Source: Elusimicrobiota bacterium (GTDB lineage: Bacteria; Elusimicrobiota; Elusimicrobia; F11). From it: a stretch of DNA of 64,000 nt. The translations under genes were made by a program, and so were the position numbers. The notes under the pieces are model-generated. The model saw only the letters and a program-made list of their open reading frames with translations, did not search any database and was not told where the DNA came from. Every line of letters begins with the position of its first letter. Position 1 is the stretch's first letter. Below are positions 31,050 through 58,944 of the stretch, in pieces. The DNA is taken from positions 608,001 to 672,000 of the forward strand of contig JBGAON010000001.1 of NCBI GenBank assembly GCA_044221725.1. The letters run 5' to 3'.

Positions 31050-31055
31050 GACCCT

Positions 31056-34750: not shown

Positions 34751-34777
34751 TGTAACCTTCCGTGCCCCTCAATCGTC
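34751..34777 (+). promoter_or_regulatory. Putative ECF-type promoter TGTAAC-N17-CGTC
   Basis: Motif read directly; a similar site lies upstream of glmS. Confidence 0.45.
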
Positions 34778-34817
34778 GTAAGTAATGGACTTCATTACTT
34801 TTGATTCGGAGGGGCAC
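34762..34817 (+). promoter_or_regulatory. Hairpin sequestering the dehydrogenase RBS
   Basis: GTGCCCCTC pairs with GAGGGGCAC (SD); inner stems AATC/GATT and AAGTAATG/CATTACTT. Confidence 0.6.
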
Positions 34818-36145: not shown

Positions 36146-36148
36146 GCC

Positions 36149-37729: not shown

Positions 37730-38997
37730 TGACACAAACGTTCCCTGTTCGTCGTCCCTACCCATGGAAGTGGCTTGTGCTGTTTGCTGCCATCGGAGCG
37801 CTTTTCGTTTACGGAATGTTTTTTTCTCCGCAGATTCCTCAGTTTGATTCGCGCGAACGATCGGCGTTGTTTGGCGGCCGGCAGACGTATTACTTGATTC
37901 ATATGCCGGCGGTGCCGAACGGCCAAGATTTTATGGTATCGAAGGCCGAAGCATGGCTCGTCGGCATGGCCACAAAAGGTTTTCATCCTTTGTTGCTGTC
38001 GGAAGTGCATCGTCGGTTGCAAGCAAACGAAGGGCTGCCGGGGAAAACGGTGGTGCTCATGTTTGATCCGGGAACCACCTACACATTTGAAGTCATGGCG
38101 CCGCTATTGGCGAAATACAAATACCCGGCTGTTTGGGTCACCAACGTGAATGCCATGAGCCGCCATGACCGGCAGTACGTGAGTTATCACGTGATGCACG
38201 CGATGGAAAAATCAGGAATTTGGGACGTTGCGCATTACGAGGGATCGCGGCTGGTGATCCATTCACCGAAGGCGAAAGACATCGTTATTGGTCAATCGAA
38301 AGGCACGTGGCGTGAGAATTCGGGTCGGCGCGCGCTTAACCGTGGCGTTCCGGAAGACCGTCTAAACCGGTTGCATGTGAATTGGAACTGGACCGAGCAG
38401 CAGATGGTGGACCGGCTACAAGCCGAAGAGCCGTTACAGATCAACGGTTTCTTAACACTAAAAAATATTTCCGGTCACAATTGGGGAATTATTATGCCGG
38501 TTACCTCGGCCGCGAACCCCGGGTTTAGTTTGAAGGCCCCGATGGAAGGTCGCACCGCGAATCTTAGCTGGCTGGGGACGCGTGGAATAAAAGACGCTCA
38601 GTTTCGGCTGAACGTGCAATCGTTGAGCGGCGAAATGTGGCTCATGATGCGTTCCGACGAAGAAGTCGGCGAGAGCGTCGGCGTTTGTTTCGGCAATGGC
38701 GTGCTCACGGTCGGTCAAGCGCGCGATCATCAGTTCCGGCCGATCGCGACCTATCCAATCGAATCGTTGCGGCAGCCCACCAGCTTTTTGGCGCGTATTT
38801 CTTTAAACGGGCCAAACCTTGTTGTCACTGTGAACGGCGTTCAAGCCGCTCGCCTAAATTCATTGACGCCACCGCAGTCCGACGAGGGGATTGTCCGTAT
38901 GCTGGTTTACGACAAAATCATGGGCGGCGCGCAAGTGGAGTCCGTGAAACTGGAGATGGAACGACAGGGAAATATTATTAGTGGAGAACGTCCATGA
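37726..38997 (+). CDS. Membrane-anchored degenerate CE4 deacetylase-like domain plus beta-sandwich domain
   Basis: N-terminal TM; LPGKTVVLMFDPG where TFDDG is expected; beta-rich C-terminus. Confidence 0.65.
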   Translation: MMTQTFPVRRPYPWKWLVLFAAIGALFVYGMFFSPQIPQFDSRERSALFGGRQTYYLIHMPAVPNGQDFMVSKAEAWLVGMATKGFHPLLLSEVHRRLQANEGLPGKTVVLMFDPGTTYTFEVMAPLLAKYKYPAVWVTNVNAMSRHDRQYVSYHVMHAMEKSGIWDVAHYEGSRLVIHSPKAKDIVIGQSKGTWRENSGRRALNRGVPEDRLNRLHVNWNWTEQQMVDRLQAEEPLQINGFLTLKNISGHNWGIIMPVTSAANPGFSLKAPMEGRTANLSWLGTRGIKDAQFRLNVQSLSGEMWLMMRSDEEVGESVGVCFGNGVLTVGQARDHQFRPIATYPIESLRQPTSFLARISLNGPNLVVTVNGVQAARLNSLTPPQSDEGIVRMLVYDKIMGGAQVESVKLEMERQGNIISGERP

Positions 38998-41900: not shown

Positions 41901-42560
41901 GGCCTTAGTTTCTACACGAATCCCTCGTTGTTCCATACGTTGAGTGGAAGAGCCATGTGGCACTGGTTCCCAAAAAGTTTCGGTGTGACGGATACGTACA
42001 CGGCGTCTTTGGCTCTCGACTCCCGTTGGTCGGACTCGTTTGAAACGGAAGTTACCGGCGGGCGCGCGTTGTACGACACCGCTTCGGCCATCCAACACAA
42101 CGTGACGGAAGACTACGGAAATCTCTATCTCGCGTTTAAACCAGAACTGTGGAGAATATCGTTGAAAGCGTCGGGCGGGAATCTTTCCGACGACAATCAA
42201 CGTTACGGAGGGCAGGCCGGAATTTCACGCGACATAGCGTTCGGTTTCCGTGGCGTTTACCGTTACACGTACGACAATATGAAAGAAATCAGCCCGCTTT
42301 ATTACAGCCCGCAACAATTGCATCAGCATCAATTGGGTTTGCAATTTAAGCCGGCGTTCCGTGTGATCGAACCATCGCTCACGTACATGCCGGGTATCGG
42401 TAAGGAGCGGAACACAAACCAAACATTCGTGCAAGACATCGAAGCGGCGGTGCTCTTCCACATCGGTCGTCGCACGACACTAATGCCGTTCTACGGTCTC
42501 ACCAAAACTCCAACCTACACGCGCGACACGTACAACGTGCAGTTAACCATCCACTTTTAA
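38994..42560 (+). CDS. TPR - polysaccharide deacetylase - beta-barrel fusion (PgaA/PgaB-like exporter)
   Basis: Signal peptide, many TPRs, PVLLYH, LTFDDG, SHADMGH, YAYPEG; C-terminal amphipathic strands ending in Phe. Confidence 0.8.
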   Translation: MKRNNRSCLFSAAALFILMASQVRAEDLGLLRSQALARYHEGRYEEAAQLYRKIIALRPGDVEMLRNLMWVLWKDERFNDAKRIATQLLAIDKNDAEATTIVRKAPTLALRAEANANFHAGRFTQANKLYKDLAALEPDNPSVLRDYMWSLWETGNYDEARDTAKKILTLNKSDQEAKDMLTKAPLASLRARAIQSYKAKRYQDAIDAYQKLLAHSPNSASILKDIYWCQWQLGHYKDVTDIATNLTELYPNDPEVWNLLGRAHVANDKLEEGLRAYNRSLELKPSQPDTQRVVGRLHVDLREFDNAIGVLSELEAKDPSIRTIYPQLAKAQFFKGFYSESAKNWAKAAQLYPENDNYKLHEARALYYNGQIPEAMTKLEKLANGNGPMKWMAIDFIVDDALSHRDIKTAIRMLETNLKGNVEPAQESRLLKLGTIYLDNHQSRKALQTLNRFLKLNPGNIPGLLIKADTLYDLGHNGAAARIYKQVQKLNPYSINAQEGLANAEFAAGNFHNALTAFDKAYALDPTDPYLMILEAHYMNESGLYKKGRNVLLRWLNENKNHQVVPVLLYHGLTPFNRDPMLAYPVHVRVSVFEDHIRALKSAGYTPITSEQLAAWYKKKGDLPKKPILLTFDDGRLDSFKYADPILQKYGFKATMFVPIANIEGHMPPSYVSWSQILQYQKSGRWEFQSHADMGHGRIDIDAKGRQGLFLVNRQWLEKENRLETVKEWEERVLNDHINAKKKIAQMLGKTPVAYAYPEGTYGQIDIVNSPEAVPVNIAAMKKEYQLAFHQDRFGLNVRTRDPMYLTRLEPNPAWTGEELVRYLQDKSPYVVIPRQLLWLALWNEKPRQADGYLKDLRNAGASQVVLLGEEGRIRSALGDVPGARQSINAARAHGADADNDKLFASIDVQGGRLWSPAYTFTEDNRRRRNSIFEQTLRPFKVSKFNVGIDYMYGSYREVGVSTITQNGAGLSFYTNPSLFHTLSGRAMWHWFPKSFGVTDTYTASLALDSRWSDSFETEVTGGRALYDTASAIQHNVTEDYGNLYLAFKPELWRISLKASGGNLSDDNQRYGGQAGISRDIAFGFRGVYRYTYDNMKEISPLYYSPQQLHQHQLGLQFKPAFRVIEPSLTYMPGIGKERNTNQTFVQDIEAAVLFHIGRRTTLMPFYGLTKTPTYTRDTYNVQLTIHF

Positions 42561-43117: not shown

Positions 43118-44944
43118 TTATTCCACCGTCACGCTTTTTGCGAGGTTGCGGGGTTGGTCGACGTCGCAGCCGCGTAGCACCGCGATGTGGTACGCGAGCA
43201 TTTGCAACGGAATAATTGTCAGTAGTGGCGACAGAAATTCGTGGGTGCGCGGTACCGCGATCACGTGATCCGCTTTGTCGCTAACTTCGGTGTCTATTTC
43301 GTTCGTGATAGCGATCACGCGCCCACCGCGCGCTTTTACTTCCTGAATATTCGAAATCATTTTTTCTTTAATCGATGAATCGGTGGCGATGGCGACCACC
43401 GGCAAGCCTTCTTCGATAAGCGCAATCGGCCCGTGTTTCATTTCGCCGGCCGGATATCCTTCCGCATGGATGTACGAAATTTCCTTTAATTTCAAGGCCC
43501 CTTCCAACGCCACGGGATAATTCAAGTGGCGTCCCAAGAAAAGAAAATCTTTCGCGCGATAATATTCGCGCGCCACGTCCTCAACGATGCCGCTTTTGTC
43601 GAGAAATACTTGAAGCATGTGCGGTAGATAGTCCAGTTCTTTGAGAATCAATCGTTGCTGCGACAACGGAATCGTGTTTCGGCATTCGGCGATGTAAAGT
43701 GACAACAGAAGAAGCGCCGTCAATTGCCCGGTGAACGCTTTCGTGGAAGCCACGCCGATTTCGGGACCACAGTGCGTGTACAGCGTGTTGTCCGCGTCGC
43801 GCGTAACCGTTGAGCCGAGCACGTTGCAAACGGACAACGTCGGAAAACCTTTTCGTTTGCAGTCGCGCAGCGCCGCCAGCGTGTCGGCCGTTTCGCCGGA
43901 TTGCGAAATCGCCGTGATGAGGGTTCCTGGCTCCTTGCTGGCTTTCATGTAGCGAAATTCGCTGGCGATTTCGACGTCGCACGGTATCTTTGCTAACTCT
44001 TCCATCCAAAATCGCGCGACGAGCCCCGCGTGATAAGACGTTCCGCATCCAACCAAGCAAATTTTTGGAATTTCTTCGGCAAGTTTACGAGGGAGTGCTT
44101 CTTCGAGTTTTACCGACGCTTTGTTGAGATCAATCCGACCGCGAAATGTGTTTTGAATCGTCTCGGCCTGCTCGTGGATTTCTTTGAGCATAAAATGCTT
44201 GCGGCCATTTTTCTGGGCCATCTTCGCGTCCCACTTGATTTCTTTGACGGGGCGATTCACGAGGGTTCCTTTTCGGTCGTAAATTTGGAGGCGTTGCTGC
44301 CGAATTTCGGCCATATCGCCATCCTCGAGGAAAATAACGTTGCGCGTGTGATTGAGCAGCGCCGGCACGTCGGAAGCGATCATCATCTCTTTGTTGCCGA
44401 CGCCGATGACGAGAGGCGAATCTTTTCGTACCGCAATGAAGCGATCTCTTTCATCGGCCGAAACCACGCCCAACGCATACGAACCTTTTACGTTCTCAAG
44501 CGCCCTTTTGACAGCTTCAAGAATGTCGCCGTTGTAGAACTCTTCGATGATGTGCGCGAGAACCTCGGTGTCGGTTTGTGACTTGAAGATATGTCCTTTG
44601 CCCGTGAGATCGTGTTTCAAAACGTCATAGTTCTCGATGATGCCGTTATGAACAACGAAAATTTTGCTCTTGCAGCAGGAGTGGGGGTGAGCGTTTTCTT
44701 TGGTCGGGCGTCCATGGGTGGCCCAGCGCGTGTGACCAAGCCCCAACGACCCGTGCAGCGGGCGTTCTTTGATCAGGTTTTCGAGCGCGGCCAATTTTCC
44801 AATGCTTCTCACCAATTGGACTTCGCCACCATTCAAAATCGCCAAGCCGGCCGAATCGTATCCCCGGTATTCCAAACTTTTAAGCCCTTGAACGAGCACA
44901 TCCGACGCTTCTTTATCTCCAATATAACCCACAATTCCGCACAT
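43118..44944 (-). CDS. glmS: Glutamine--fructose-6-phosphate aminotransferase
   Basis: MCGIVG, EYRGYDSAG, HTRWATHG, SQSGETAD, PRNLAKSVTVE. Confidence 0.97.
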   Translation of the reverse strand: MCGIVGYIGDKEASDVLVQGLKSLEYRGYDSAGLAILNGGEVQLVRSIGKLAALENLIKERPLHGSLGLGHTRWATHGRPTKENAHPHSCCKSKIFVVHNGIIENYDVLKHDLTGKGHIFKSQTDTEVLAHIIEEFYNGDILEAVKRALENVKGSYALGVVSADERDRFIAVRKDSPLVIGVGNKEMMIASDVPALLNHTRNVIFLEDGDMAEIRQQRLQIYDRKGTLVNRPVKEIKWDAKMAQKNGRKHFMLKEIHEQAETIQNTFRGRIDLNKASVKLEEALPRKLAEEIPKICLVGCGTSYHAGLVARFWMEELAKIPCDVEIASEFRYMKASKEPGTLITAISQSGETADTLAALRDCKRKGFPTLSVCNVLGSTVTRDADNTLYTHCGPEIGVASTKAFTGQLTALLLLSLYIAECRNTIPLSQQRLILKELDYLPHMLQVFLDKSGIVEDVAREYYRAKDFLFLGRHLNYPVALEGALKLKEISYIHAEGYPAGEMKHGPIALIEEGLPVVAIATDSSIKEKMISNIQEVKARGGRVIAITNEIDTEVSDKADHVIAVPRTHEFLSPLLTIIPLQMLAYHIAVLRGCDVDQPRNLAKSVTVE

Positions 44945-44971: not shown

Positions 44972-44974
44972 TTG

Positions 44975-45001
44975 GACAATCCAGCCCGCCGGGGGGTTAC
45001 A
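44975..45001 (-). promoter_or_regulatory. Putative ECF-type promoter TGTAAC-N17-TGTC
   Basis: Minus-strand read TGTAAC CCCCCGGCGGGCTGGAT TGTC. Confidence 0.4.
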
Positions 45002-45002
45002 T

Positions 45003-46670
45003 TTAGGCTAAGAGAGAGGACTTGTTTTCGGACGCTTCGATCGAGTCAAAAAATACGGTGTCCGGCGTTGTGTTGTCAGGTTTGTAAACGGGCAGGCGAA
45101 AACGAAATGTGGATCCTTTGCCGAGCTCAGAGTCCACCCAAATGCTGCCGTTATGACCTTCGACAATCTTTTTAACAATGGCGAGACCCATTCCGGTGCC
45201 CGGGTATTTGTGCCACGTGTGAAGGCGTTGGAAAATTCCAAAAATTCTCTCGAAGTGGCTTGGATCAATTCCGATGCCGTTGTCGCGGACCGAAAAACTC
45301 CATTCGTCTCCGTCCCGTTCGGCGTCGATGCGAATCTGCGGGGCGCATTCACTTCGAAACTTGATCGCGTTGCTGATTAAATTTTGAAACAACTGGCTCA
45401 TCGAAACGCGGCTCGCAAAAACTGTCGGAAGAGAGCCCACGGACACTTCGGCGTTCGCGGTCTTGATCTGCAATTCAAGATTGAGCAACGCGTTTTTTAC
45501 GGTTCGATTAAGATCGACCGGTTCAAACGCTTTTTCCTTCGTCACGATGCGCGAGTATCGAAGCAGATTGTCAATCAGTTCGCTCATGCGCGAGGCGGCT
45601 CCTTGAATGCGCGTGAGATATTCCCGTCCCTTATCTGAAATTCCGGTGCCTTCGGATTTGAGCAGGTCGCCAAAATTAAGAATTTTTCGCAGTGGTTCTT
45701 GAAGATCATGCGAGGCCGAAAACGCAAATTGCTCCAGTTCCTTGTTGGAGCGGAGCAATTCTTTCGCTTGTCGTTCCAGTTCTTCGGTCGCTTGTTTACG
45801 ACCATGAATATCGGTGCACGTCACAATCCAGCCGGCGGGCCGAAATTCCGAGTCTCTTTGCAGCACGCCCCGGATCAAATGCCAGCGTTCCGGTTCATCG
45901 TCTCTTCCGTTGCGAATGCGGCCTTCGCCCTCAAAATTTTCGTTTCGCTCTTGTGCTTTGTCCCATATCGACAAGATCAGTGCGAGATCGCTCGCGTTAA
46001 ACGCTTTTTGCCAGCCGTGCCCCATCGATTTATCGGATGCAAAGCCAGTGTATTCAAACCAAATGCGATTGAAGTAGTCGGCCGATCGGTTCACCCCGGT
46101 GCGCCAGACGATATGAGGAACGGAATTCGCCAAGTCTTGATATTGGCGCAGGTTCTTTAATTCCATTTCGGCCAACTGGCGGGATCGCTCGCGTTGTTCG
46201 GCCTCAACCAGCAATCGCGCCTGTCGTTTTATTTTTTTGTTTTTATCGTAGAGCTCGACGAGCACCGCTACTTTGGACTTTAGAATCAGCGGGTCGAACG
46301 GTTTGAAGATGTAATCAACGGCGCCGCAGTCGTAGCCACGATAAACATGCGCTTCTTCTTTGTTGATCGCCGTAATGAAAATAATCGACGTGTTTTTCGC
46401 ACTTTCGATTTCGTTTATGCAACGGGCCGTCTCAAAACCGTCCATGCCGGGCATCTGCACGTCGAGCAAAATCACGGCGAAGTCGCGTTCGGTGACCATC
46501 TTGATGGCCTCAATGCCCGAGGCCGCTTGATAGCACGTGTATCCGAGGCCATCGAGAACCGCCTCGAGCGTCAGTCGCCCTTCGGGGCGGTCGTCGACGA
46601 TGAGAATATCGATCTTGTCGTCTTCGTCCGCTTTCGCGGACATTATTGCTTCGACACTTTTGTTAACCAT
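45003..46670 (-). CDS. REC-PAS-histidine kinase
   Basis: ILIVDD...LLDVQMP receiver, PAS/PAC, SHDLQEPLR H-box, NLISNAIKF, GTGMGL. Confidence 0.92.
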   Translation of the reverse strand: MVNKSVEAIMSAKADEDDKIDILIVDDRPEGRLTLEAVLDGLGYTCYQAASGIEAIKMVTERDFAVILLDVQMPGMDGFETARCINEIESAKNTSIIFITAINKEEAHVYRGYDCGAVDYIFKPFDPLILKSKVAVLVELYDKNKKIKRQARLLVEAEQRERSRQLAEMELKNLRQYQDLANSVPHIVWRTGVNRSADYFNRIWFEYTGFASDKSMGHGWQKAFNASDLALILSIWDKAQERNENFEGEGRIRNGRDDEPERWHLIRGVLQRDSEFRPAGWIVTCTDIHGRKQATEELERQAKELLRSNKELEQFAFSASHDLQEPLRKILNFGDLLKSEGTGISDKGREYLTRIQGAASRMSELIDNLLRYSRIVTKEKAFEPVDLNRTVKNALLNLELQIKTANAEVSVGSLPTVFASRVSMSQLFQNLISNAIKFRSECAPQIRIDAERDGDEWSFSVRDNGIGIDPSHFERIFGIFQRLHTWHKYPGTGMGLAIVKKIVEGHNGSIWVDSELGKGSTFRFRLPVYKPDNTTPDTVFFDSIEASENKSSLLA

Positions 46671-49600
46671 ATATGGATTAGCGACAACAGTTTCTCAGGA
46701 TCAACCGGCTTCGTGATGTAGTCCGATAGCCCTGCCTGCAAACATCGTTCCTGATCTTCTTTCATTGCTTTGGCCGTGAGCGCCACGACCGGCGTTGTTT
46801 TGAACAGCGGATTTTTTCGAATTATCCGTGTGGCTTCCAAGCCGTCCATGCCGGGCATCATGATGTCCATGAGCACGACGTTAACGGCCGGATTCTCCTC
46901 GAGCCGCTTAATTCCGTCTTGCGCATTTTCGGCGGCCAATACCTTGATCCCGCGGTCTTCCAATGCCGTCTTCACGGCGAAGATATTTCGGTTGTCATCA
47001 TCGATCAACAGCACTTGGCAGCCGTCGAATTTGAACCCTTCTGGCAATGGCGGCAACGTGGGAATCGCTGCCGGTGTGCTCGGCGCCGCGGATTCCACGA
47101 TTCCCGAGTACTGTTCCGGTAAATAGAGCGTAAATACGCTGCCCTCCCCCGGACTGCTTTCCACTTCGAGAATTCCACCGAGTAGGCGCGCGATTTCGCG
47201 ACTGATGGTGAGGCCGAGGCCCGTGCCGCCGAAGCGACGGCTGGTTGTTCCGTCGGCCTGTTGGAACGCCTCGAAGATGATCTTTTGCTTTTCTTTAGGA
47301 ATTCCGATACCCGTGTCCGCCACCGAGAACGCGATCACGTTGCGAGCTTGATTCAGGGCTTCGACCATGAATTTTTGATTCTTCGGAGCGCGATGAATTT
47401 TGAGTGACACCGTGCCTTTCTCTGTAAACTTAAACGCATTGGACAAAAGGTTTTTAAGAATCTGCTGCAGACGGTTTGGGTCGGTGTGGATTTCTTCGGG
47501 ACGGCTTGTCGCATTCGCGAACGAAAACCGCAGCCCTTTGTGATCCGCGACGGGCCGGAAGCTCTGCTCGAGATATTCTTGCACCTCGGAGATTGGCACG
47601 TTGCGCGGTTCGATCGGCATTTTGCCCGCTTCGACCTTCGACAGATCCAAAATCTCGTTGATCAATGACAGCAAGTCGCAGCCAGAGGAGTGAATCGTCT
47701 GTGCGTACTTCACTTGTTCCGGCGTCAGATTATGGTTTTTGTTTTCGGTCAGCATTTTCGACAGGATCAGCAAGATGTTGAGCGGCGTTCGCAGTTCGTG
47801 TGACATGTTCGCTAAGAACTCAGACTTATATTTCGAGATCAGCGAGAGCTGCTCGGCTTTTTCTTCGAGAGACAGGCTGGCGAGCTCGATTTCTTGGTTT
47901 TTAAGTTCAAGCAGTTTTGCTTTCTCTTCGAGTTCCTTGGCCTGCATTTCGAGTTCGGCGTTTGACTTCTGAAGTTGTTTCAGAAGCTCTTCTGTTCGCA
48001 TGTTCGACTCAATGATGTTCATGATGACGCCGATGTTGTCCATCAATTGATCAAGGAAGATGAGGTCGTTTGCCGAGAAACGTCGGAAGGACGCCAGTTC
48101 GATCACCGCTTTTAGTTCGCCTTCGAAAAGCACCGGCAGTATGACGATATGGTTTGGTGCGGCTCCGCCAAGACTCGAGCTGATTTTCAAATAGCCTTCG
48201 GGTGGCGCATTTAGAATGATGCGCTTCTTTTCGAATCCGCATTGTCCCACGAGTCCTTCGTGCATCCGCACCTCGAGAGGCACATTGTCATCCTGCTTCA
48301 CACCATACGACGCTATCATCCGAAGAATTGTTTGCGGTGCCGCCATGTCATAAATGAAAAACGTACCGTAATGCGCTTCGATAAGCGGCGTAAGTTCGGA
48401 CATGATGAGTTGCGCGACAGCCTTGATACTTCGTTGGCCCTGCATCATTTCGGTGAATTTCGCGATGTTCGTTTTCAACCAGTCCTGTTCGCGATTTTTT
48501 TGCGTTGTGTCTTTAAGGTTCGCGATCATCTGATTGATGTTGTCCTTGAGCGCGGCCACTTCTCCCTGCGCTTTCACGGCAATGGAGCGCGTTAAGTCTC
48601 CTTTTGTCACGGCGGTGGAAACTTCAGCGATTGCGCGCACTTGCGTGGTCAAATTTCCGGCCAGCTGATTTACGTTTTCGGTTAAGTCCTTCCAAATACC
48701 GGCAGCGCCCGGCACTTTCGCTTGGCCGCCCAGCTTTCCTTCAATACCCACTTCGCGCGCCACGCTCGTCACCTGATCGGCGAACGTGCGCAGAGTGTCG
48801 GTCATGCTGTTGATCGTTTCGGCGAGCGCGGCCACCTCGCCCTGCGCTTCGAGCACAAATTTTTGGCTCAAGTCGCCGTTCGCCACCGCCGTTACCGTTT
48901 CCACGATGCCGCGCACTTGCTTCGTAAGATTCGCGGCCATAACGTTCACGTTTTCGGTTAAGTCTTTCCAAATACCGGCAGCGCCCGGCACTTTCGCTTG
49001 ACCGCCCAGCTTTCCTTCAATGCCCACTTCGCGCGCCACGCTTGTCACCTGATCGGCGAACGTGCGCAGAGTGTCGGTCATGCTGTTGATCGTTTCGGCG
49101 AGCGCGGCCACCTCGCCCTGCGCTTCGAGCACAAATTTTTGGCTCAAGTCACCGTTGGCGACGGCGGTCACGACTTTCACAATACCGCGCACTTGCTTCG
49201 TGAGATTCGACGCCATGATATTCACGTTATCGGTCAAATCTTTCCAAGTTCCCGATACACCGATAACGGCCGCTTGGCCGCCCAATTTTCCTTCGGTGCC
49301 CACTTCTTTCGCAACGCGCGTCACTTCGGCGGCAAACGATCGCAGCTGGTCCACCATGGTGTTGATCGTTTCTTTGAGTTCCAAAATTTCGCCGCGAGCA
49401 TCGACCGTGATTTTTTGCGACAAGTCGCCGCGCGCAACGGCGGTCGTCACTTTCGCGATGTTGCGCACTTGGTCCGTTAGGTTTTTCGCGAGACCGTTCA
49501 CGTTATCGGTTAAGTCTTTCCAAGTTCCCGACACCCCTCGCACGTCCGCTTGACCACCCAAAATTCCGTCCGTGCCCACCTCTTTGGCCATACGCGTTAC

Positions 49601-51274
49601 TTCGGCGGCAAACGAGTTTAGTTGGTCCACCATTGTGTTGATCGTGGTCTTTAGTTCAAAAATTTCGCCCTTCGCGCCGACCGTGATTTTCTGAGACAAG
49701 TCGCCGCGCGCCACGGCGGTGGTCACTTTCGCAATGTTGCGCACTTGGTCCGTTAGGTTTTTCGCGAGACCGTTCACGTTGTCGGTTAAGTCTTTCCAGG
49801 TTCCGGACACCCCTTTCACGTCGGCTTGTCCGCCCAATTTTCCTTCGGTTCCCACTTCTTTCGCAACGCGCGTCACTTCGGCGGCAAACGATCGCAGCTG
49901 GTCCACCATGGTGTTGATCGTTTCTTTGAGTTCCAAAATTTCGCCGCGAGCGTCGACCGTGATTTTCTGCGACAAGTCGCCGCGCGCAACGGCGGTCGTC
50001 ACTTTCGCGATGTTGCGCACTTGGTCCGTTAGGTTTTTCGCGAGACCGTTCACGTTATCGGTTAAGTCTTTCCAGGTTCCCGAGACACCTTTCACGTTTG
50101 CTTGGCCTCCGAGTTTTCCTTCGGTTCCTACTTCTTTGGCCATACGCGTTACTTCGGCCGCGAAAGAACGAAGTTGATCCACCATCGTGTTGATGGTTTC
50201 TTTGAGTTCCAAAATTTCGCCTTTCGCGTCGACCGTGATTTTTTGCGACAGGTCGCCGCGCGCAACGGCGGTCGTCACTTTCGCGATGTTACGTACTTGG
50301 TTGGTGAGATTGCCGGCAAGACCGTTCACGTTGTCGGTTAAGTCCTTCCAAGTTCCCGAGACCCCTTTCACGATGGCCTGGCCTCCGAGTTTCCCTTCGG
50401 TTCCCACTTCTTTCGCCATTCTCGTCACTTCGGCCGCGAACGAATTGAGCTGGTCCACCATTGTGTTAATCGTGGTCTTTAGCTCAAAGATTTCGCCTTT
50501 GGCGTCGACCGTGATTTTCTGCGACAAGTCGCCCCGAGCAACAGCGGTTGTCACCTTCGCGATGTTGCGCACCTGGTCGGTAAGATTTCCGGCCAGATTG
50601 TTCACGTTATCGGTTAAATCTTTCCAAATGCCCGACACGCCTTTCACATTCGCTTGTCCACCCAATTTTCCTTCGGTACCCACTTCTTTCGCAACACGCG
50701 TCACTTCCGATGCGAATGAGTTCAGCTGGTCCACCATTTCGTTCACGGTGATACCGATGCGCGCGAATTCTCCTTTCAATGGTCGCCCGCGGATTTGCAT
50801 GGATGTTTTCTGAGAAAGGTCTCCTTTTGCGACGGATGTGATTACGCGCGCCACTTCGTTAGCGGATTGAACGAGGTCGTTAATGACAGCACTCACCGAC
50901 TCGATACCGGCGGTCCACGCTCCGCGCGCGGGGCCGAGTGTGCCACGCTCCGGCATTTTTCCTTCTTTGGCAACGGTCTCGCTGACGCGCATTAATTGGA
51001 ACGAGAAATTCTGATTGATCTCAATGATTTCATTCAATATATCGCCGGCTTCAGCGAGGGGGCCTTCCTCGGCGACAGGAAATCGAACAGTAAAGTCTCC
51101 TCGCCGTATCGCTTTCAGCGTGCTCACCAACGACTTTAATTCGGTTCGACTAATAAGGTAGCGGAAATCCGATGGCGATCCGTGGGAATTTGCGGCATTG
51201 GCGACAGCCTTTCTTTTTTTTGGTTCCTTGTGGCTGGGCACCGAGAGCACCGCGGAATTAGTTGATTGATCCAT
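46643..51274 (-). CDS. Poly-HAMP GAF hybrid histidine kinase (OsaA / fungal group III-like)
   Basis: Tandem ~92-aa repeats, [29 protein letters not shown]-terminal receiver. Confidence 0.93.
48600..50830 (-). repeat. Tandem ~276-bp HAMP-coding repeats
   Basis: Eight well-conserved EVG..G.LGGQA.V....G.WKDLT.NVN units; DNA-level near identity among several. Confidence 0.9.
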
Positions 51275-51338: not shown

Positions 51339-51773
51339 ATGGAAAGCAAAGTGATTGAAGTGTTGCTTGTGGAGGACGATCTCGATAGCGTTTACCTGAC
51401 GGTAACCGCTGCCGAGATGGGGAAAACCGCGTTTCATGTTAACTTAGCCTTCGATGGCGTTGAAGCCATGGACTATCTTTACCGGAGGGGGAAATACACC
51501 GCGGTGCCTCGACCCGATTTGATTTTGCTCGATCTGAATATGCCACGCATGAACGGGCAGGAAGTTTTGCATGAAATTAAAAAGGATCCGAATTTGAGCA
51601 CGATCCCCGTGGTGATCCTGACGACCAGCGACCAACATCCCGATTTGAAGACGACGTACGGTCTTTCCGAAGACAGCTACCACATTAAGCCCAGCCGATT
51701 TAACGACTACATTGATCTGATGAAGTTTGTGGCGGAAGCGTACAAGAAAGGCCGATTGAATTACGCGCATTAG
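51339..51773 (+). CDS. Single-domain response regulator (Rcp1-like)
   Basis: VLLVEDD, RPDLILLDLNMP, PVVILTTS, KP. Confidence 0.9.
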   Translation: MESKVIEVLLVEDDLDSVYLTVTAAEMGKTAFHVNLAFDGVEAMDYLYRRGKYTAVPRPDLILLDLNMPRMNGQEVLHEIKKDPNLSTIPVVILTTSDQHPDLKTTYGLSEDSYHIKPSRFNDYIDLMKFVAEAYKKGRLNYAH

Positions 51774-51867: not shown

Positions 51868-51919
51868 TACGAACCGGTTTTGAAAAAGTTCACACAACTT
51901 TTTGGGACGATTTTCGTAA
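51868..51919. promoter_or_regulatory. Back-to-back putative ECF promoters
   Basis: Plus strand CAAC-N16-CGTAA (51895-51919); minus strand TGAAC-N16-CGTA (51892-51868). Confidence 0.6.
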
Positions 51920-51946
51920 GTGAGGTAAGTTAAACAAGGAGACATC

Positions 51947-52621
51947 ATGGTCGCAGTCACAACGGTTGGAAGTTTTGCAGGCAGTGTTATCGTTGCGGAA
52001 TTGGAAAACGTCTCGACGGTGCCGCCTCCCATCGGAAGTGACGAGGCGTACATAAAGGAAATATTGAAAGGGAACGCGGATGCGTTCTCTGTTTTATTTA
52101 ATAAATATCACCCGCGTTTTTTGGGCATGGCGATGCGGATTCTCCGCAATCAGGCCGAAGCCGAGGACGCTGTCGATGAAGCCTTCGTTGACGCTTATCG
52201 TCACCTGTCCGATTTTCAGAACAAAGCAAAGTTTTCCACATGGTTATACTCCATTGTGATTAACCATATTCGTAACCGAATGCGGCACAATCGCGTGATT
52301 CGCTGGACGTCTCTCGACGGCACCGAAACGGTTCGGGAAAGCGGGGAGCATCGCCCGCTCGATGTGGCCGAGGCGGCCCCCGGGATTGATAGTGTTGTTG
52401 ACGGAAAAATTCAGATGGAAACGCTCTACGAGATGGTTCTCCAACTTCCCCAGCCGTACCGAACGATTTTCTCAATGCACTATTTTAAAGGCCAACTGTT
52501 GCAAGAAATCGCGCACGAGTTGCATCGGCCCATTGGTACCGTCAAAGCCTACCTTCATCGCGCTCGCAAGACGATTGAGCGCCGCCTAAAAGTTAACCAC
52601 CCATCCATGTTGGTGAGCTAA
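51947..52621 (+). CDS. ECF RNA polymerase sigma factor
   Basis: AEDAVDEAF, FSTWLYSI (sigma2); EIA..L..PIGTVKAYLHRAR (sigma4); SD AAGGAG. Confidence 0.92.
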   Translation: MVAVTTVGSFAGSVIVAELENVSTVPPPIGSDEAYIKEILKGNADAFSVLFNKYHPRFLGMAMRILRNQAEAEDAVDEAFVDAYRHLSDFQNKAKFSTWLYSIVINHIRNRMRHNRVIRWTSLDGTETVRESGEHRPLDVAEAAPGIDSVVDGKIQMETLYEMVLQLPQPYRTIFSMHYFKGQLLQEIAHELHRPIGTVKAYLHRARKTIERRLKVNHPSMLVS

Positions 52622-52653
52622 AAAAAACCGGCTCACAAGGAGCCGGTTTTTTT
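52620..52653. terminator. Bidirectional intrinsic terminator
   Basis: A-run CCGGCTC loop GAGCCGG T-run between convergent genes. Confidence 0.9.
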
Positions 52654-52672
52654 GTGCCCGAACGAGCGGCGT

Positions 52673-53059
52673 TTATTGTGGATTGTTTACTTCAACCCGC
52701 GTAACGAGCATGCTTGTGGGATCATATTCGAATGTTACGGAGTCGCCGGCGTTCACGTTCGTAACGCTGGACGTCTTGCCGCTTTTCATATACGCGGTTT
52801 GATCGCTCAGTGTGTACTCGGTGGTTTGACCTTGGCTCTCGATGCGGACGCGATTCCCGCTGCGGTCGATTGATTTTACGGTGCCGGTGGCCATCGATTT
52901 CGTTGATGAGTTTGACGAATTCGATGTGTCGGATGCGTTTGAGGTGCCGTCCGATCCGGTTGGTGAAACGGTGGTGCTAGGGGATGTGGTGTCCATCGCG
53001 GCCCAGACGAAACTGCTCAAGGCGAGACTCACAACAAATCCTCGGATGATGTTTTTCAT
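52673..53059 (-). CDS. Small secreted Ser/Thr-rich protein with OB-fold-like (DUF5666-like) domain
   Basis: SD AGGAGGAG, signal peptide, TGTVKSID...GDSVTFEY. Confidence 0.75.
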   Translation of the reverse strand: MKNIIRGFVVSLALSSFVWAAMDTTSPSTTVSPTGSDGTSNASDTSNSSNSSTKSMATGTVKSIDRSGNRVRIESQGQTTEYTLSDQTAYMKSGKTSSVTNVNAGDSVTFEYDPTSMLVTRVEVNNPQ

Positions 53060-53110
53060 TTTTCTCCTCCTGTGATTTTGAATACGGTTCGACTGCGAAC
53101 CGCATAATTT

Positions 53111-53137
53111 TTACGGGGGGCTCACCACAAAAGTTCA
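53111..53137 (-). promoter_or_regulatory. Putative ECF promoter TGAAC-N17-CGTAA
   Basis: Minus-strand read TGAAC TTTTGTGGTGAGCCCCC CGTAA. Confidence 0.6.
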
Positions 53138-55183
53138 AACGGGCGGCGCTGGATTTAAGGACAGATACGAACGCAAAACCTCAGCGACGGACCACGCTTG
53201 CGCGATGCAGCCGCGCGGCATGAAAGGTTCATCGCCGTCAAAAATTTCGCTGACCGATCCCATGCCCGCTTCGGCCAAGTGCGCTTCGAAATCGGCCAGG
53301 CAATGCGCGAGATCTTTCGGATCCCGGTAAATTTTTCGCCCCGCATCAATATAGGGGCCTATTAGCCAAGCCCAAACCATTCCTTGGTGATAAGCGGAGT
53401 CGCGCGCGTGCCGATCCCCTTGGTACCGCGAATGATAATTTTTGTCCGTCGGTGCCAGTGACCGCAGTCCGAACGGCGTCAACAAGTGCTTGGTCACGAC
53501 ATTGAACATGGGTTCCCATTGGGCGGGGTTCAACACCGGAAAGCGCAGCGACAACGAGAACAGTTGGTTTGGTCGCAGAGAAGCGTCGGCGGGGAAGTCG
53601 CCATCGATCACGTCGTAAAGATAACCGCCATCGCTGTACCAGAAGCGTTGATTGAACGACGCGTATGTGCGGTCGGCCATCGCAACATATTGCTTGCTCG
53701 GTTGCCCCAGTTTTTCCGACCACTCGTTCATGAGCCGCAACGCGTTAAACCACAAGGCTTGGATTTCAATGGGTTTTCCGCGGCGCGGCGTCACAACCCA
53801 ATCGTCTGCTTTTGCGTCCATCCATGTGAGCGCCACGCCTTCCTGGCCACCTTTGAGCAATCCATCGTTCGGATCGACACCAATGTCAAAGTGGGTTCCT
53901 TTTTTGTGCCATTCAATAATGGATTCCAGAGTCGGATAAAGCGCGTGCAAGATCTCTTCGTCTTTCGTGATATGGATGTACCGATCGATCGCGTGGAAAT
54001 ACCACAATGTCGCGTCCATCGTGTTGTAAAGAGCGGTGCGTTGGCCTTCGGGAAACAAATTCGGAATCAGACCGTCTTTCACGTATCTCGCGAACGTTTG
54101 AAGGATGGCTTTTGCTTCTTCGAAACGACCGGTGCACAGCGTCAATCCTTCCAAGCTGATCATCGTATCGCGGCCCCAATCGGTAAACCAATGATAACCG
54201 GCAATTATGGTTCTAAGCGGTTCGCCGGCCGCATCGGCGATGGACCGTTCGTGCGGGCGGGTTGCCGGGAAAACAATGAATTGATTGGCGGCCAACACGA
54301 GCTGAGCTGGAAATCCCTCTCGCGCCGCGGCCGGGGCGATGTTAATCAGATGCTTCAAGCGGTGCTCTTCCGATTCAAAGATCGTTTTTGCATCCCACTC
54401 GAACGAGTCCCACGTTTCGACGCTCGCAACGAAAGCGACGGATTCGTGTTCGGCCAGTTCGGCAAAGAAGAAACCGGGACTTAAATTATGATCCTCGCAT
54501 TCCAGCCCGCGTTCTTTTTCAACGCGGTAATAAATTTTTTCTGCTTCCACGAAATCGGATACAAAGAGCCCTTTGGGTTCCTTGAGGGCCATGCGCAGCG
54601 GAGCAATGTTATCGGACGGATGAACTTCGCACAGTCCTTTTTTCAACATCACCGTAAACGGCCAGTTGGTGGGGTGCCCGAGAGGGCCATCGTGCCCGCG
54701 GAATCCCACGTAAGGTCGAACGAAAAGTCGAACACTTGATCCCTTTATAAGCTTGTATTCGACATAGATTGTGTTTTGTGCCCACGGCATCGCGATCTTT
54801 TTTTGAAACGTGCGTCCTTCGATTTCAAACGTCCACACCGGCATTTGCCATGCGAGCTTGAATTCATTCAGGTATTGGTGCGTTTGGCCGACGATGTCGC
54901 CCGCGTAGCGTTCGGCGCCGCTCAGTTGAATCATACGGTGATCAATCTGCAGTGTTTCATCGATCCGGGGAATGAGCACCGTTCGTCCCCATGGTGCGGG
55001 AAGATTCGGAATAAAAAGACCGTGGTAGCGGCGTGTCGGAATGTTGCGCACGGTGCTCGACCCATAGCCGCCAAGCCCGTTCGTGACCAACCATTCTTGG
55101 CTCAACAAATAATCGGGGTCTTCGCCGCGGCGCCACTTCGAGACGACGGACACATCTTCTAAGGCATGGGTCGTCGTGTTCAT
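53135..55183 (-). CDS. Amylo-alpha-1,6-glucosidase (glycogen debranching enzyme)
   Basis: EWLVTNGLGGY, AGYHWFTDWGRDTMI, TWMDAK, AYHQG, QAWSVAE. Confidence 0.92.
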   Translation of the reverse strand: MNTTTHALEDVSVVSKWRRGEDPDYLLSQEWLVTNGLGGYGSSTVRNIPTRRYHGLFIPNLPAPWGRTVLIPRIDETLQIDHRMIQLSGAERYAGDIVGQTHQYLNEFKLAWQMPVWTFEIEGRTFQKKIAMPWAQNTIYVEYKLIKGSSVRLFVRPYVGFRGHDGPLGHPTNWPFTVMLKKGLCEVHPSDNIAPLRMALKEPKGLFVSDFVEAEKIYYRVEKERGLECEDHNLSPGFFFAELAEHESVAFVASVETWDSFEWDAKTIFESEEHRLKHLINIAPAAAREGFPAQLVLAANQFIVFPATRPHERSIADAAGEPLRTIIAGYHWFTDWGRDTMISLEGLTLCTGRFEEAKAILQTFARYVKDGLIPNLFPEGQRTALYNTMDATLWYFHAIDRYIHITKDEEILHALYPTLESIIEWHKKGTHFDIGVDPNDGLLKGGQEGVALTWMDAKADDWVVTPRRGKPIEIQALWFNALRLMNEWSEKLGQPSKQYVAMADRTYASFNQRFWYSDGGYLYDVIDGDFPADASLRPNQLFSLSLRFPVLNPAQWEPMFNVVTKHLLTPFGLRSLAPTDKNYHSRYQGDRHARDSAYHQGMVWAWLIGPYIDAGRKIYRDPKDLAHCLADFEAHLAEAGMGSVSEIFDGDEPFMPRGCIAQAWSVAEVLRSYLSLNPAPPV

Positions 55184-57117
55184 GACAGAGACCTCGGAAC
55201 AAGATTGAGAATGCAGGTCTGGCTTCGTGGAATACGAACGCCTTGCGACGTGTCAATCTTTGGGCGGGGGGCTTGATCGAAGGCGCTCGTCCACAGCAAA
55301 TTCCAATCGCTGTTTTCGGGGGGAGCCAGAAGCGGCTCCGACACCGGAGAAAAATCGAAGGCGGATCCCAAATTGACAATCATTAATCGGTCGCCGTGGG
55401 TCGCGTCAAAGTAACGGAGCGCAAAACTTTTTGAGTGCAAAACGGCACCGTCGATGTGGGGTTCGGACTGGGCCAAAACCGGATCGGTACGTCGCAGAGA
55501 AAGCAGCTCTTTAACGAACGCGCTGGCGCTCAGCGCGCGTTCTGTTCGCGGCGAACCGATTTTCGATTGGCTGAAAACGACTTCGTCGTTGGGATTAAGC
55601 ATTGCGGCGAGCGCGGGCGAGTCTCGGTACGTCGGGAATTGCGACAGAAATTCGCGGCGCCCAGCGTCCACCGCTTTCGCCAGCTCCTTATTATGATCGG
55701 TAAAAAAATGAAACGGGCGGGGGGACTCAAACTCCTGGCCCATGAAAAGCATCGGCGTGCCGGGCGCGAGCAGCGCAAACCCGAGAAGCGCGCGGTATGT
55801 TTGTTGATCCGTAATCTCGTGCAAGCGTTTGCCATCAGGATGGTTCGCCACTTGATCGTGGTTCTGTGTGTAGGTCACAAAAGAACATTTCGGAACATGG
55901 AGCGTCGGCGTTCCGCGGTTTTTCTTTTGCCAGCCGTAATATTGTCCTTGAAATAGAAACCCGTGCTTCGCGAGCGCGACAAACTCGCTTGCGTTTCCTG
56001 TGTAATCGGTGAAATAAGCTTCGCTGAATCCGGTTATGGCGACACGACTCGCATGATGAAAGTCGTCGTTCCACATTGCATCAAGACCAAATCCGCCCTC
56101 ATCTATGGATTGCACGCAGCGCACATTTTGCGGTTCGTTTTCGGCAATCAAAATGATGGCGCGGTCTCCGGCCGCCGCACGCGCGTTCGCCGAAATTTCC
56201 GCCAATATGTGACGGCGACTGTTGTCGAAAATACTTTGGGTCGCATCCAGACGGAGGCCATCCAAATGAAACTCCGAAATCCAATAACACGCATTTTGGA
56301 TGAAGAAGTGGCGTACGGCTTCGCAATTGGGACCGTCGAAATTGATTGCCTCGCCCCATTCCGTATCTTGCTTACTGAAATAATTGTCGCTGAACTGCGT
56401 GAGATAATTTCCGTCCGGCCCGAAGTGATTGTAAACGACGTCAAGAACAACCGCCATCCGCAGGGCGTGCGCGGAATCAACAAACCGTTTTAGTGCATCG
56501 GGCGGTCCGTACACGTGATAGGGCGCGAACAGATCAACCCCATCGTAGCCCCAGTTCCACCGGCCCGCGCACTCGTTGAGCGGCATAAGCTCGATGACCG
56601 TTACTCCAATGTCCTTTAAGCGGTCGAGTTCGCGCGCCGCAGCGTCGAGCGTGCCTTCCTCCGTAAACGTTCCGACGTGGAGTTCGTAAATAACTTGGCC
56701 CGCCATTTGGATTCCTTTCCAGTTGTGGTCGGTCCACGGAAATTCCTGTGGGTCGATGATCTGCGACGGGCCGTGCGGTCCTTGAGGCTGGTAGCGGGAG
56801 CATGGATCGGGAAAACGCGCGCCGTCGTCCAATTGGAATTTGTAAAGCGCGTTTTTCTTTATCTCGGGAAATTGGCCCGTGAAATAACCGGATTCGTGTT
56901 TCGACAGAACGAACGTTTCATGATTGCTGAGCTCGACGGCCACGTTGTTCCGCTCGGGAGCCCACACCCGGAACGTCGTCCCTTCTTCGGTGACGTTCGC
57001 ACCAAGGTCAAGACGCCATTTAGGGGAGTTGGGAAAAAGAAAGCTGTCCACGATCAGAGGGGGACCGATCCGGACAGCTTTTCGCACGCGCATCACCGTG
57101 TCTTTTTGAACGGTCAT
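55180..57117 (-). CDS. treZ: Malto-oligosyltrehalose trehalohydrolase
   Basis: YELHVGTF, WGYDGV, DVVYNH, GLRLDAT, WNDDFHH, QNHDQVAN, LFMGQE. Confidence 0.9.
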   Translation of the reverse strand: MTVQKDTVMRVRKAVRIGPPLIVDSFLFPNSPKWRLDLGANVTEEGTTFRVWAPERNNVAVELSNHETFVLSKHESGYFTGQFPEIKKNALYKFQLDDGARFPDPCSRYQPQGPHGPSQIIDPQEFPWTDHNWKGIQMAGQVIYELHVGTFTEEGTLDAAARELDRLKDIGVTVIELMPLNECAGRWNWGYDGVDLFAPYHVYGPPDALKRFVDSAHALRMAVVLDVVYNHFGPDGNYLTQFSDNYFSKQDTEWGEAINFDGPNCEAVRHFFIQNACYWISEFHLDGLRLDATQSIFDNSRRHILAEISANARAAAGDRAIILIAENEPQNVRCVQSIDEGGFGLDAMWNDDFHHASRVAITGFSEAYFTDYTGNASEFVALAKHGFLFQGQYYGWQKKNRGTPTLHVPKCSFVTYTQNHDQVANHPDGKRLHEITDQQTYRALLGFALLAPGTPMLFMGQEFESPRPFHFFTDHNKELAKAVDAGRREFLSQFPTYRDSPALAAMLNPNDEVVFSQSKIGSPRTERALSASAFVKELLSLRRTDPVLAQSEPHIDGAVLHSKSFALRYFDATHGDRLMIVNLGSAFDFSPVSEPLLAPPENSDWNLLWTSAFDQAPRPKIDTSQGVRIPRSQTCILNLVPRSLS

Positions 57118-57129
57118 ACACCATGAGAT

Positions 57130-57588
57130 CTATGGAATGTTCCATTGCGAGGTAACTTTAATGGCACTAATTAGTCCGCTGGATTGCTTGAGCACCTCGA
57201 ATTGCTCGCGAACTTCGTTGAGGCTTTCACCGGCCAGTCCTTCTCCCAGGGCTTCGTCATAGGCTTTTCGAATGGACTCTTCCGCGCGGTCGCACACCTC
57301 AATAATCGCCGTGTCGTCTTTTGCGGTAATAATCTCCTTAATATTGTCCCAGCGATTTTTAAAAAAGGGAAACGCGAGGTCAGACTCGGAAAGTCCGCCG
57401 AGGCGGTTGATGTGGGCCTCCAAGTTCAGGGCGAAAAGGGCCCTCTGATCCATAAAACTCTTAAAGATCTTCTTTAAGTCGCGATTATTGGTGAGCGCGT
57501 ACGCGATTCGGTACCCGCTTTCGCTCAAGCGACAACACTCGAGCAGGTTATTCAGGATGGAAACGGCACTTCGGTATGTGGTGAACAT
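57130..57588 (-). CDS. PA2169/DUF2383-like four-helix-bundle stress protein
   Basis: LNNLLE...GY...QR...L...I.RLGG...W..IK...CDRAE...Y.EAL pattern; start placed at ATG 57588. Confidence 0.7.
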   Translation of the reverse strand: MFTTYRSAVSILNNLLECCRLSESGYRIAYALTNNRDLKKIFKSFMDQRALFALNLEAHINRLGGLSESDLAFPFFKNRWDNIKEIITAKDDTAIIEVCDRAEESIRKAYDEALGEGLAGESLNEVREQFEVLKQSSGLISAIKVTSQWNIP

Positions 57589-57595
57589 AGCCTTG

Positions 57596-57653
57596 TTACG
57601 TGCCGCGGATAAAAAAAGTTCAACACACCGAACTATTTTCGCTTCCTTCCGTA
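57596..57653. promoter_or_regulatory. Second back-to-back putative ECF promoter pair
   Basis: Minus strand TGAAC-N17-CGTAA (57622-57596); plus strand CGAAC-N16-CGTA (57629-57653). Confidence 0.6.
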
Positions 57654-57687: not shown

Positions 57688-57852
57688 ATGAATTACAAAC
57701 TGTCAGAGATTCTTGGGTCCATCGATTTTTATGGCTCGACGCTTGGTAAAACCGCCTGGTACCAAAACACTGCTCCCGGAAAACGCGGTCGGCCGCCCAA
57801 AGACAAAGAAGCGCACAAACCCATCAACAAAAAACCAAAATCTCCAAAATAG
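57688..57852 (+). CDS. 54-aa basic protein with AT-hook-like motif
   Basis: SD GGAGGAG, KRGRPPK, Lys/Pro-rich tail. Confidence 0.55.
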   Translation: MNYKLSEILGSIDFYGSTLGKTAWYQNTAPGKRGRPPKDKEAHKPINKKPKSPK

Positions 57853-58907: not shown

Positions 58908-58944
58908 CCCTCCTTCGCCGAAGCTCCGAAGGAGCGAAGGAGGA

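Follow-up and report, generated by a model that had tools for sequence, protein, structure and literature searches.

Five CGTA-type promoter sites in an Elusimicrobiota genome are probably read by an ECF sigma factor encoded elsewhere, with the neighbouring ECF gene as a likely target

Five promoter-like sites of the form AAC-N16/17-CGTA lie close together in a 64,000-nucleotide (nt) stretch of DNA (the window) from Elusimicrobiota bacterium GCA_044221725.1 (JBGAON010000001.1, positions 608,001–672,000, forward strand; contig C3 of the 2.82-Mb genome G000). One of them precedes the gene of a sigma factor from the extracytoplasmic function (ECF) family, here called ECF-A, and a first-pass annotation of the window had taken the five as a compact general-stress regulon run by that sigma factor. 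Our analysis indicates instead that the five sites are members of a genome-wide GAAC-N16/17-CGTA set likely read by a second sigma factor, ECF-B (C5:67750–68307). ECF-A is probably among the targets of ECF-B, and the motif it reads is probably another one, TGTAAC-N17/18-GTC. Elusimicrobiota have almost no cultured members, and no literature naming the phylum together with a sigma factor and a regulon was found. For this phylum the analysis predicts, from sequence, two pairs of sigma factor and promoter and a stress circuit with two tiers.

Genes of G000 were called anew (2249 genes), and the genome was compared with 30 relatives, giving a set of 31 in which relatives are coded Gnnn and sigma loci Lnnn. 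Completeness was 94% for G000, 91% for G003, 94% for G009 and 99% for G008, with G009, G019 and G027 together spanning 94–97%. The same pattern at other spacer lengths served as the control, the reversed pattern being unsuitable since its composition differs. Two matrices were built entirely from other genomes: a B matrix from 13 sites upstream of ECF-B relatives, with ranks given over 2248 G000 genes, and an A matrix from 50 sites of the TGTAAC (A) type.

All five sites were present as claimed, each with a T-rich run after AAC, the positions first assigned to them falling 1–2 nt upstream of the AAC. They comprise i) cAAC-T-tract-N16-CGTA at 51896..51918 (+), upstream of the ECF-A gene (B-matrix rank 15/2248) and a predicted ECF-B promoter; ii) gAAC-N16-CGTA at 51868..51890 (-), back-to-back with the former; iii) an N17 site at 53112..53135 (-), upstream of a gene for a secreted protein (rank 7/2248); iv) an N17 site at 57597..57620 (-), 8 nt before the ATG of the PA2169 gene (rank 8/2248); and v) an N16 site at 57631..57653 (+), upstream of a small basic open reading frame (ORF), back-to-back with the fourth (rank 2/2248). 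The loose AAC-CGTA pattern is frequent, with 24 occurrences in the window and 754 in the genome. The four intergenic gaps concerned (399 nt in total) hold 5 matches, whereas 5000 Markov simulations gave 0.14 on average and never more than 3. A stricter, T-rich pattern occurs 5 times in the window and 15 times in the genome, but having been drawn from the five sites themselves it is not independent. The earlier proposal that these are ECF-form promoters is supported: the sites are far above chance, look like true ECF promoters and are in excess before genes at particular spacer lengths.

The compactness first proposed for the set does not hold, since its members are spread over the genome: 64 genes match exactly no further than about 100 nt from their start, where control spacers predict about 21. 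Within 100 nt of a gene start, AAC-Nx-CGTA occurs 45 times with spacer 16 and 21 times with spacer 17, against 6–15 times for each of 14 other spacers, leaving about 45 sites above background; the -10 variants CGTT and CATA showed no excess at spacers 16/17. Back-to-back pairs number 10 (0–2 at control spacers), and the B sites cluster on C1 (150–240 kb) and C5 (29–70 kb). CGTA followed by N8/9 and the ATG of an ORF was found 18 times at spacers 16/17 and 19 times over 11 control spacers combined. This fixed distance suggests transcription starts 8–10 nt after CGTA and leaderless mRNAs. The PA2169 gene, whose ATG at 57588 follows CGTA by 8 nt without a ribosome-binding site, is an example, and a leaderless mRNA is predicted for the PA2169-treZ-debranching operon.

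Pfam assignments of 43 G000 genes at or behind B sites include Ku, LigD, BON, DUF1328, DUF5670, DUF6496, DUF4142, two hemerythrins, MscS, Fe/Mn superoxide dismutase (SOD), transaldolase, a second TreZ-like enzyme, a TreT-type synthase, a DegP-type protease and phosphoenolpyruvate synthase; 9 have no family. This content (end joining, trehalose/glycogen, SOD, MscS, BON and small stress proteins) fits the general-stress role that the first-pass annotation had suggested. As a marker in the relatives Ku was of no use, being found in 2 of 30, in both cases inside an operon with no site directly upstream.

The genome contains 10 sigma2 matches, 7 of them of ECF size. When the genome was scanned with a matrix made from the five sites, the second-best match preceded ECF-B. 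The gene is flanked at -1 by a divergent SOD gene and followed by genes for a 158-aa protein with one hydrophobic segment and then a 335-aa RseB-like protein. Of 17 loci in other genomes with an ECF-B-like gene, 11 have AAC-N16/17-CGTA in the 250 nt upstream (0–1 at control spacers). The assignment of the regulon to ECF-A failed on two counts: none of 13 ECF-A ortholog loci has GAAC-N16/17-CGTA within 400 nt upstream, and the motif is in excess in three genomes without ECF-A and not in three with it. The pattern GAACYW-N14/15-CGTA exceeded two control spacings (p<0.01) in 5 of the 31 genomes (G000, G003, G009, G019 and G027), all of which contain ECF-B or a member of its sister clade. The best matches to ECF-A in G009, G019 and G027 are at 33% identity or less; G008, G015 and G020 have ECF-A and no CGTA excess; and G001 and G002, of the same genus, have neither sigma factor and no excess.

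Individual targets follow the same lines. Homologs of the window's secreted protein that adjoin ECF-B in G003 and G009 have the same B site, and G009, which has no ECF-A, also has one before a DUF2383 gene. G003 also keeps the small basic ORF, again preceded by such a site. A tree uniting ECF-A with the ECF-B clade was rejected (p-AU, 2.7e-6). ECF-A falls in an Elusimicrobiota clade (support 100/97; in this tree the rows for the C4 ECF, L080 and L069, left out or mis-framed, were not interpreted), and its closest homologs are all Elusimicrobiota records.

The strongest excess among the 31 genomes is that of G027 (L243–L245) and G019, whose sites are highly regular (GAACTWWW...TCGTA) and precede tandem aspartyl proteases and toxin-antitoxin-like genes, and the sister sigma factor appears to run a different gene set there.

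Residues tied to promoter choice also differ between the two sigma factors. Aligned to RpoE, 120 ECF-A homologs have Asn84 in 110 of 110 parsed and Val or Ala172 in 111 of 112 parsed; ECF-B has Asp84 and Ser172. In the mutagenesis data of PMC7776599 (Dataset S3), Ser172 goes with G at -34 at 0.83 (Val, 0.17; Ala, 0.16), and at -13/-12 Asp84 goes with CG at 0.62 and TG at 0.02, Asn with CG at 0.40 and TG at 0.19; the Asp of the DXXR motif has been assigned to -12G (PMC3397946). The specificity loop of ECF-B (FDPSRPF) aligns with that of SigW (FDINRKF), and the ECF-A loop with that of RpoE/AlgU (FRGDSAF). As described in PMC5758882 and PMC6648896, this loop governs the choice at the corresponding position, SigW being tied to CGTA and RpoE to C. 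In sequence, ECF-B is nearer to SigE (PDB 9m9d, E 1.4e-34) and SigW (9e-27) than to RpoE and AlgU (7e-18 and 1e-16). The residue differences lend support to separate promoters for ECF-A and ECF-B, with the tabulated values taken from other scaffolds and Asn still accepting CG.

For ECF-A itself, TAAC-N17/18-GTC was found near the gene start at 8 of 13 loci, four of which (L059, L067, L069 and L065) have the site facing the sigma gene. Around 15 ECF-A ortholog loci (107 kb), TGTAAC-N17/18-GTC occurs 21 times, against 0–4 for each other spacer. A strict form of the pattern was found 27 times against 6 in controls in the 6 ECF-A genomes, mostly in G015 and G005, and 11 times against 9 in the other 25. 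On G000 the A matrix gives 8 genes a score of at least 12 (controls, 0–5), three of the top five lying in the window, while the five B sites score -2.8 to -16.5.

The best placed of the three A-type sites, TGTAAC-N18-GTCCAA at 44972..45001 (-; A-matrix rank 2), is a predicted ECF-A promoter 27 nt before a second copy of glmS (43118..44944, -; 58% to the housekeeping copy). An A site precedes glmS at 4 of 4 second-copy loci (G000, G003, G005 and L059) and at 0 of 5 housekeeping copies. Another, TGTAAC-N18-GTCGTA at 34751..34780 (+; rank 3), lies before a polysaccharide operon (34819..42560, +) encoding a UDP-sugar dehydrogenase (frameshifted), a PilZ-GT2 synthase-like protein, a protein with no assigned function and a TPR-polysaccharide deacetylase; the G003 ortholog of the dehydrogenase gene has TATAAC-N18-GTCTTA upstream. 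A weaker one, TGTAAC-N18-ATCTAA at 30486..30515 (+; rank 5), with one mismatch in the -10 core, precedes an ORF of 174 aa with no family.

The same stress families carry one or the other motif depending on the lineage. B sites precede DUF1328 genes in G000 and G003, DUF5670 genes in G000, G003 and G005, SOD genes in G000, G003 and G004, and hemerythrin and DUF2383 genes in G000; A sites precede DUF1328 genes in G015 and L059, DUF5670 genes in four loci, SOD genes in G005, G020 and two loci, and hemerythrin and DUF2383 genes in G015. None of the stress-family genes compared has both an A and a B site, and several copies have neither, among them the DUF2383 gene of G011 (neither type within 170 nt). 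Outside the G000 subclade, the gene after ECF-A encodes a HisKA_2 kinase (7 of 7 proteins scanned), and a REC-PAS protein is encoded there too; HisKA_2 was found in none of G000, G003 and G009. At L061–L070 and L004 the ECF-A relatives belong to a cassette that recurs from locus to locus; its other members are a small membrane protein, a PAS-HisKA_2 kinase and a REC-PAS protein lacking a DNA-binding domain.

Several observations weigh against these assignments. As to the comparison itself, the 31 genomes are mutually related, so that counts over them are not independent; a single genome supplies 3 of the 13 loci of ECF-A; and the sites used to train the A matrix included the orthologous G003 sites before glmS and the dehydrogenase gene. 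As to ECF-B, 10 of the 15 genomes with a B-like sigma factor show no excess at p<0.01, and G012 reaches p=0.033 without one. In G027 the sampled targets encode aspartyl proteases and a BrnT toxin and so fall outside the classic stress genes, and the neighbours of ECF-B match zf-HC2 (158 aa) and MucB_RseB_C (335 aa) only below cut-off (E 2.6e-4 and 7.4e-4). As to ECF-A, the site before its gene reads CAAC, not GAAC, and a B site in this position is known from G000 only, the contig of its closest relative, G003, ending upstream of ECF-A. The A motif is not enriched genome-wide in G000 or G003, shows no excess in G008, which has ECF-A (0 strict; 5 versus 6 relaxed), and shows enrichment around ECF genes from other phyla as well (19 at spacers 17/18, 61 loci), so that it is not private to the clade. 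Moreover, Asn84 tolerates CG and T-tracts widen the range of sigma factors, making cross-reading of the B sites by ECF-A possible.

Taken as a circuit, the prediction runs as follows. The membrane anti-sigma-like protein encoded behind ECF-B would hold ECF-B, with the RseB-like protein as partner, until stress frees it. ECF-B would then transcribe its own gene and about 45 units for end-joining repair, trehalose/glycogen metabolism, SOD, MscS and small stress proteins; many of the promoters would stand back-to-back, and many of the mRNAs would be leaderless. ECF-A would be one of these units and would switch on some 5–8 promoters, chiefly those of the second glmS and of the polysaccharide operon 7–17 kb away, with amino-sugar supply and polymer synthesis following as a second tier. 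An anti-sigma factor would be unnecessary for ECF-A because its supply would be limited by transcription; the first-pass annotation had noted that no anti-sigma gene adjoins it, and none was found among the flanking genes.

Stress genes appear to have changed sigma factor between lineages. In other lineages ECF-A lies beside the PAS-HisKA_2 kinase and the REC-PAS protein, and its motif stands before the stress genes themselves. We lean, by no wide margin of confidence, towards a history in which one stress gene set came under two unrelated ECFs with incompatible promoters according to lineage, one clade linked to a kinase and lacking an anti-sigma factor, the other linked to an anti-sigma factor. 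G000 would represent a part-way hand-over in which a displaced ECF-A has lost its kinase, has come under a new master and keeps only the glmS-polysaccharide branch. If so, this would be a natural case of a whole regulon switching sigma factor, with matched promoters of the same families in both states. The analysis also shows that a matching site before a sigma gene is no proof of autoregulation, the premise of most ECF promoter predictions.

It is unlikely that the two sigma factors overlap, with ECF-B as the main reader and ECF-A also reading nearby T-tract CGTA promoters, including its own, to amplify the response as paralogous EcfG proteins or Bacillus ECFs do. A T-tract is present at all five window sites, and a T-tract beside the -35 element lets a wider set of sigma factors read a promoter (PMC5758882); Asn84 takes CG, residue 172 of the G000 ECF-A is Ala in place of Val, and the site before its own gene has CAAC. 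However, L059, an ortholog that also has Ala172, keeps four T/ATAAC-N17/18-GTC sites and has no CGTA site upstream, the five sites have negative A-matrix scores, and in genomes that lack ECF-A the promoters of ECF-B itself have T-tracts just as often.

A less probable reader, alone or together with ECF-B, is the ECF-B paralog on C1 (C1:139744–140316), which is 53% identical to ECF-B, has the same Asp84 and loop type, and has a neighbour with a clearer MucB_RseB match (E 1.9e-9). Its Cys171, however, favours G (0.68) over C (0.07) at -31 (PMC7776599, Dataset S3), its own upstream site is GAAG-N16-CGTA, and G007 and G020, which have a close copy of this type, show no GAAC excess. The paralog locus (C1:138119–141307; L025) also contains RseB-like and HtrA genes. 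GAAG-N16/17-CGTA was found before the paralog, a small neighbour and an HtpX-like gene at C1:9959 (labelled by eye), with no genome-wide excess, and likely marks a small envelope regulon.

Slightly less credible still is a CGTA regulon read by ECF-A itself and switched by the poly-HAMP phosphorelay, as the first-pass annotation had it. In its favour are the site upstream of the ECF-A gene with four more within 6 kb, the lack of an adjacent anti-sigma gene and the kinases next door. The kinases in question are a poly-HAMP, GAF, HisKA, HATPase, REC hybrid kinase (1543 aa; 46643..51274, -) and a REC-PAS-HisKA-HATPase kinase (555 aa; 45003..46670, -), with a single-domain response regulator (51339..51773, +) encoded divergently from them. 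Against it stand the ortholog loci without a site, the excess in three genomes that lack the gene and the rejected joint tree, as well as the distribution of the poly-HAMP kinase, which was found in 7 of 30 relatives but in no other genome with ECF-A (0 of 5). All three signalling proteins lack an output domain that binds DNA. In G009 the poly-HAMP kinase is encoded on the same contig as ECF-B, and no A or B site was found upstream of the kinase in 6 relatives (one upstream stretch being short).

The only remaining link between a sigma factor and the kinases is the minus-strand site at 51868..51890, which, if real, would make the kinases targets and not controllers. Its B-matrix score of 21.0 is topped by one site only, making it the second strongest in the genome, and it has no sense gene for about 590 nt, before the start of the HAMP kinase at 51274. 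If real, its transcript would cross the REC gene in antisense toward the kinase operon. A small RNA behind it found no support: the downstream RNA folds no better than shuffled sequences (z 0.75), has no Rfam match above threshold and has no homolog in 4 relatives.

Lastly, for all the frequency of the loose pattern, the notion that A/T-rich intergenic DNA produced the sites by chance has a negligible probability given the spacer-specific excess, the simulations, the back-to-back pairs, the fixed ATG distance and the conservation in relatives.

The preferred assignment, with ECF-B reading CGTA and ECF-A reading TGTAAC-N17/18-GTC, resembles several known systems in part, and neither sigma factor agrees with ECF15 or ECF02 in the defining promoter features that were tested. 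EcfG/SigT (ECF15) of Alphaproteobacteria is likewise an ECF that runs a stress regulon with ku-ligD, mscS, csbD-type small proteins and envelope genes from GAAC-N16-CGT promoters, and in Sphingopyxis granuli EcfG2 transcribes EcfG1 (PMC7083833). However, EcfG1 and EcfG2 are paralogs sharing one motif, whereas ECF-A and ECF-B belong to different clades with different predicted promoters, and the -10 of ECF15 is CGTT or CATT in place of the CGTA found here. No NepR/PhyR architecture was seen beside either sigma gene, the neighbouring REC proteins having no sigma-like domain; no genome-wide search for NepR was made.

AlgU-MucA-MucB (ECF02) of Pseudomonas and Azotobacter shares a GAACTT -35 element and spacer 16/17, and it controls trehalose, glycogen, hemerythrin, transaldolase and polysaccharide genes (PMC10651043); its anti-sigma gene and MucB/RseB gene may have counterparts in the two weakly matching genes behind ECF-B. 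It differs in its TCtgA -10 and Asn84, compared with CGTA and Asp84 for ECF-B, which is nearer in sequence to SigE and SigW than to AlgU/RpoE; in addition, a second sigma factor, ECF-A, is predicted to serve the polysaccharide branch here. The promoters of SigW, SigV, SigX and SigM of Bacillus subtilis have the AAC -35, the CGTA -10 (SigW type) and the T-tract beside the -35 (PMC5758882), but their targets are those of envelope stress, unlike the general-stress targets in this Gram-negative phylum.

SigE of Actinobacteria (ECF14) is the best PDB match of ECF-B. At +1, where ECF14 has an anti-sigma factor of zinc-finger type, the protein behind ECF-B matches zf-HC2 weakly and has no visible His/Cys ligands. 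ECF14 genes have an O-methyltransferase at -1 and a trypsin-like peptidase at +2 (PMC7826278), unlike the divergent SOD at -1 and the RseB-like gene at +2 of ECF-B. The TGTAAC -35 of the ECF-A motif recurs in ECF120 (TGTAACAAA/TCGTCAT) and ECF231 (TGTAACCTT/GTTTCCAC), the latter having another -10 and a membrane zinc-binding anti-sigma factor, unlike ECF-A, which has no adjacent anti-sigma gene and elsewhere lies beside the HisKA_2 kinase. The string 'Elusimicrob' does not occur in the main text or in a portion of the supplement of the same source (PMC7826278). What appears to be new is the occurrence of the ECF-A-linked motif before the same stress families in other lineages and before polysaccharide genes in the window.

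The window kinases can be likened, by description only, to OsaA-OsaB of Streptomyces coelicolor, in which a large cytoplasmic multi-HAMP hybrid kinase lies beside a REC protein without a DNA-binding output domain and which is tied to osmotic stress and a stress sigma factor (PMC9739842). The partners in the window are a REC-PAS kinase and a single-domain REC protein, unlike OsaB.

The labels first given to the genes beside the sites (ECF sigma factor, PA2169, TreZ, debranching enzyme and HAMP hybrid kinase) hold by Pfam and NCBIfam. ECF-A (224 aa; 51947..52621, +; PF04542 and PF08281; Asn84 and Ala172 in RpoE numbering) scores 97.9 bits with TIGR02937 (cut-off 42.9) and has sigma2 and sigma4 without region 3, as in group 4. 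It converges with the gene for the secreted protein (128 aa, signal-peptide-like N-terminus, no confident Pfam family; 52673..53059, -), whose homologs share 41% (G003) and 30% (G009). Between the two genes, an A-run, a hairpin and a T-run seen by eye (52622..52653) likely form a bidirectional terminator, which was not among the calls of a terminator scan. Further along lie genes for a glycogen debranching enzyme (GDE_N, GDE_C; 53135..55183, -), the malto-oligosyltrehalose trehalohydrolase TreZ (55180..57117, -; TIGR02402, 606 bits, cut-off 538.8), the PA2169/DUF2383 four-helix-bundle protein (152 aa; 57130..57588, -; TIGR02284 above cut-off) and the basic protein (54 aa, no family; 57688..57852, +), which has a strong ribosome-binding site and is 74% identical over 34 aa in G003. 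Metatranscriptomes contained this stretch in 4 runs of one study as short contigs at a depth of about 2–8, with strand and start unreadable, and are neutral evidence. When metagenomes were scanned with the ECF-A alignment, all hits were ECFs at 27–36% identity, and the scan was not used.

In the polysaccharide region, the dehydrogenase gene (34819–36145, +) is frameshifted near a run of eight A (about 35797–35804), its C-terminal part lying in another frame. Since the G003 ortholog is a single 449-aa frame, the G000 frameshift may stem from faulty assembly or from a tract that is phase-variable. The PilZ domain fused to the GT2 synthase-like protein and the TPR-polysaccharide deacetylase downstream (36149–42560, +) may constitute an exopolysaccharide system controlled by cyclic di-GMP; 9 of 30 relatives have close homologs, and C3:850993 holds a second copy. 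Upstream, a gene for a secreted FN3 protein is followed by a PorV-like gene (31869–34720, +). PorV-like genes elsewhere in G000 (C3:384661 and C5:38817) have A-type sites (A-matrix ranks 1 and 8), and such genes recur near ECF-A relatives. The weak A-type site is followed by two ORFs (174 and 250 aa; 30525–31808, +) with no Pfam match.

Two tRNA genes on opposite strands (58835–59028) lie between the genes for a methyltransferase and trigger factor. Elsewhere in the genome, C5:197717–203413 (L027) encodes an 1898-aa protein with a sigma2-like segment and a kinase-like stretch, and a SigH/SigR-like ECF kept across the family (L026 at C5:294751; L044–L047) has GGAAC-N17-GTT upstream and a gene for a small cysteine-rich protein downstream.

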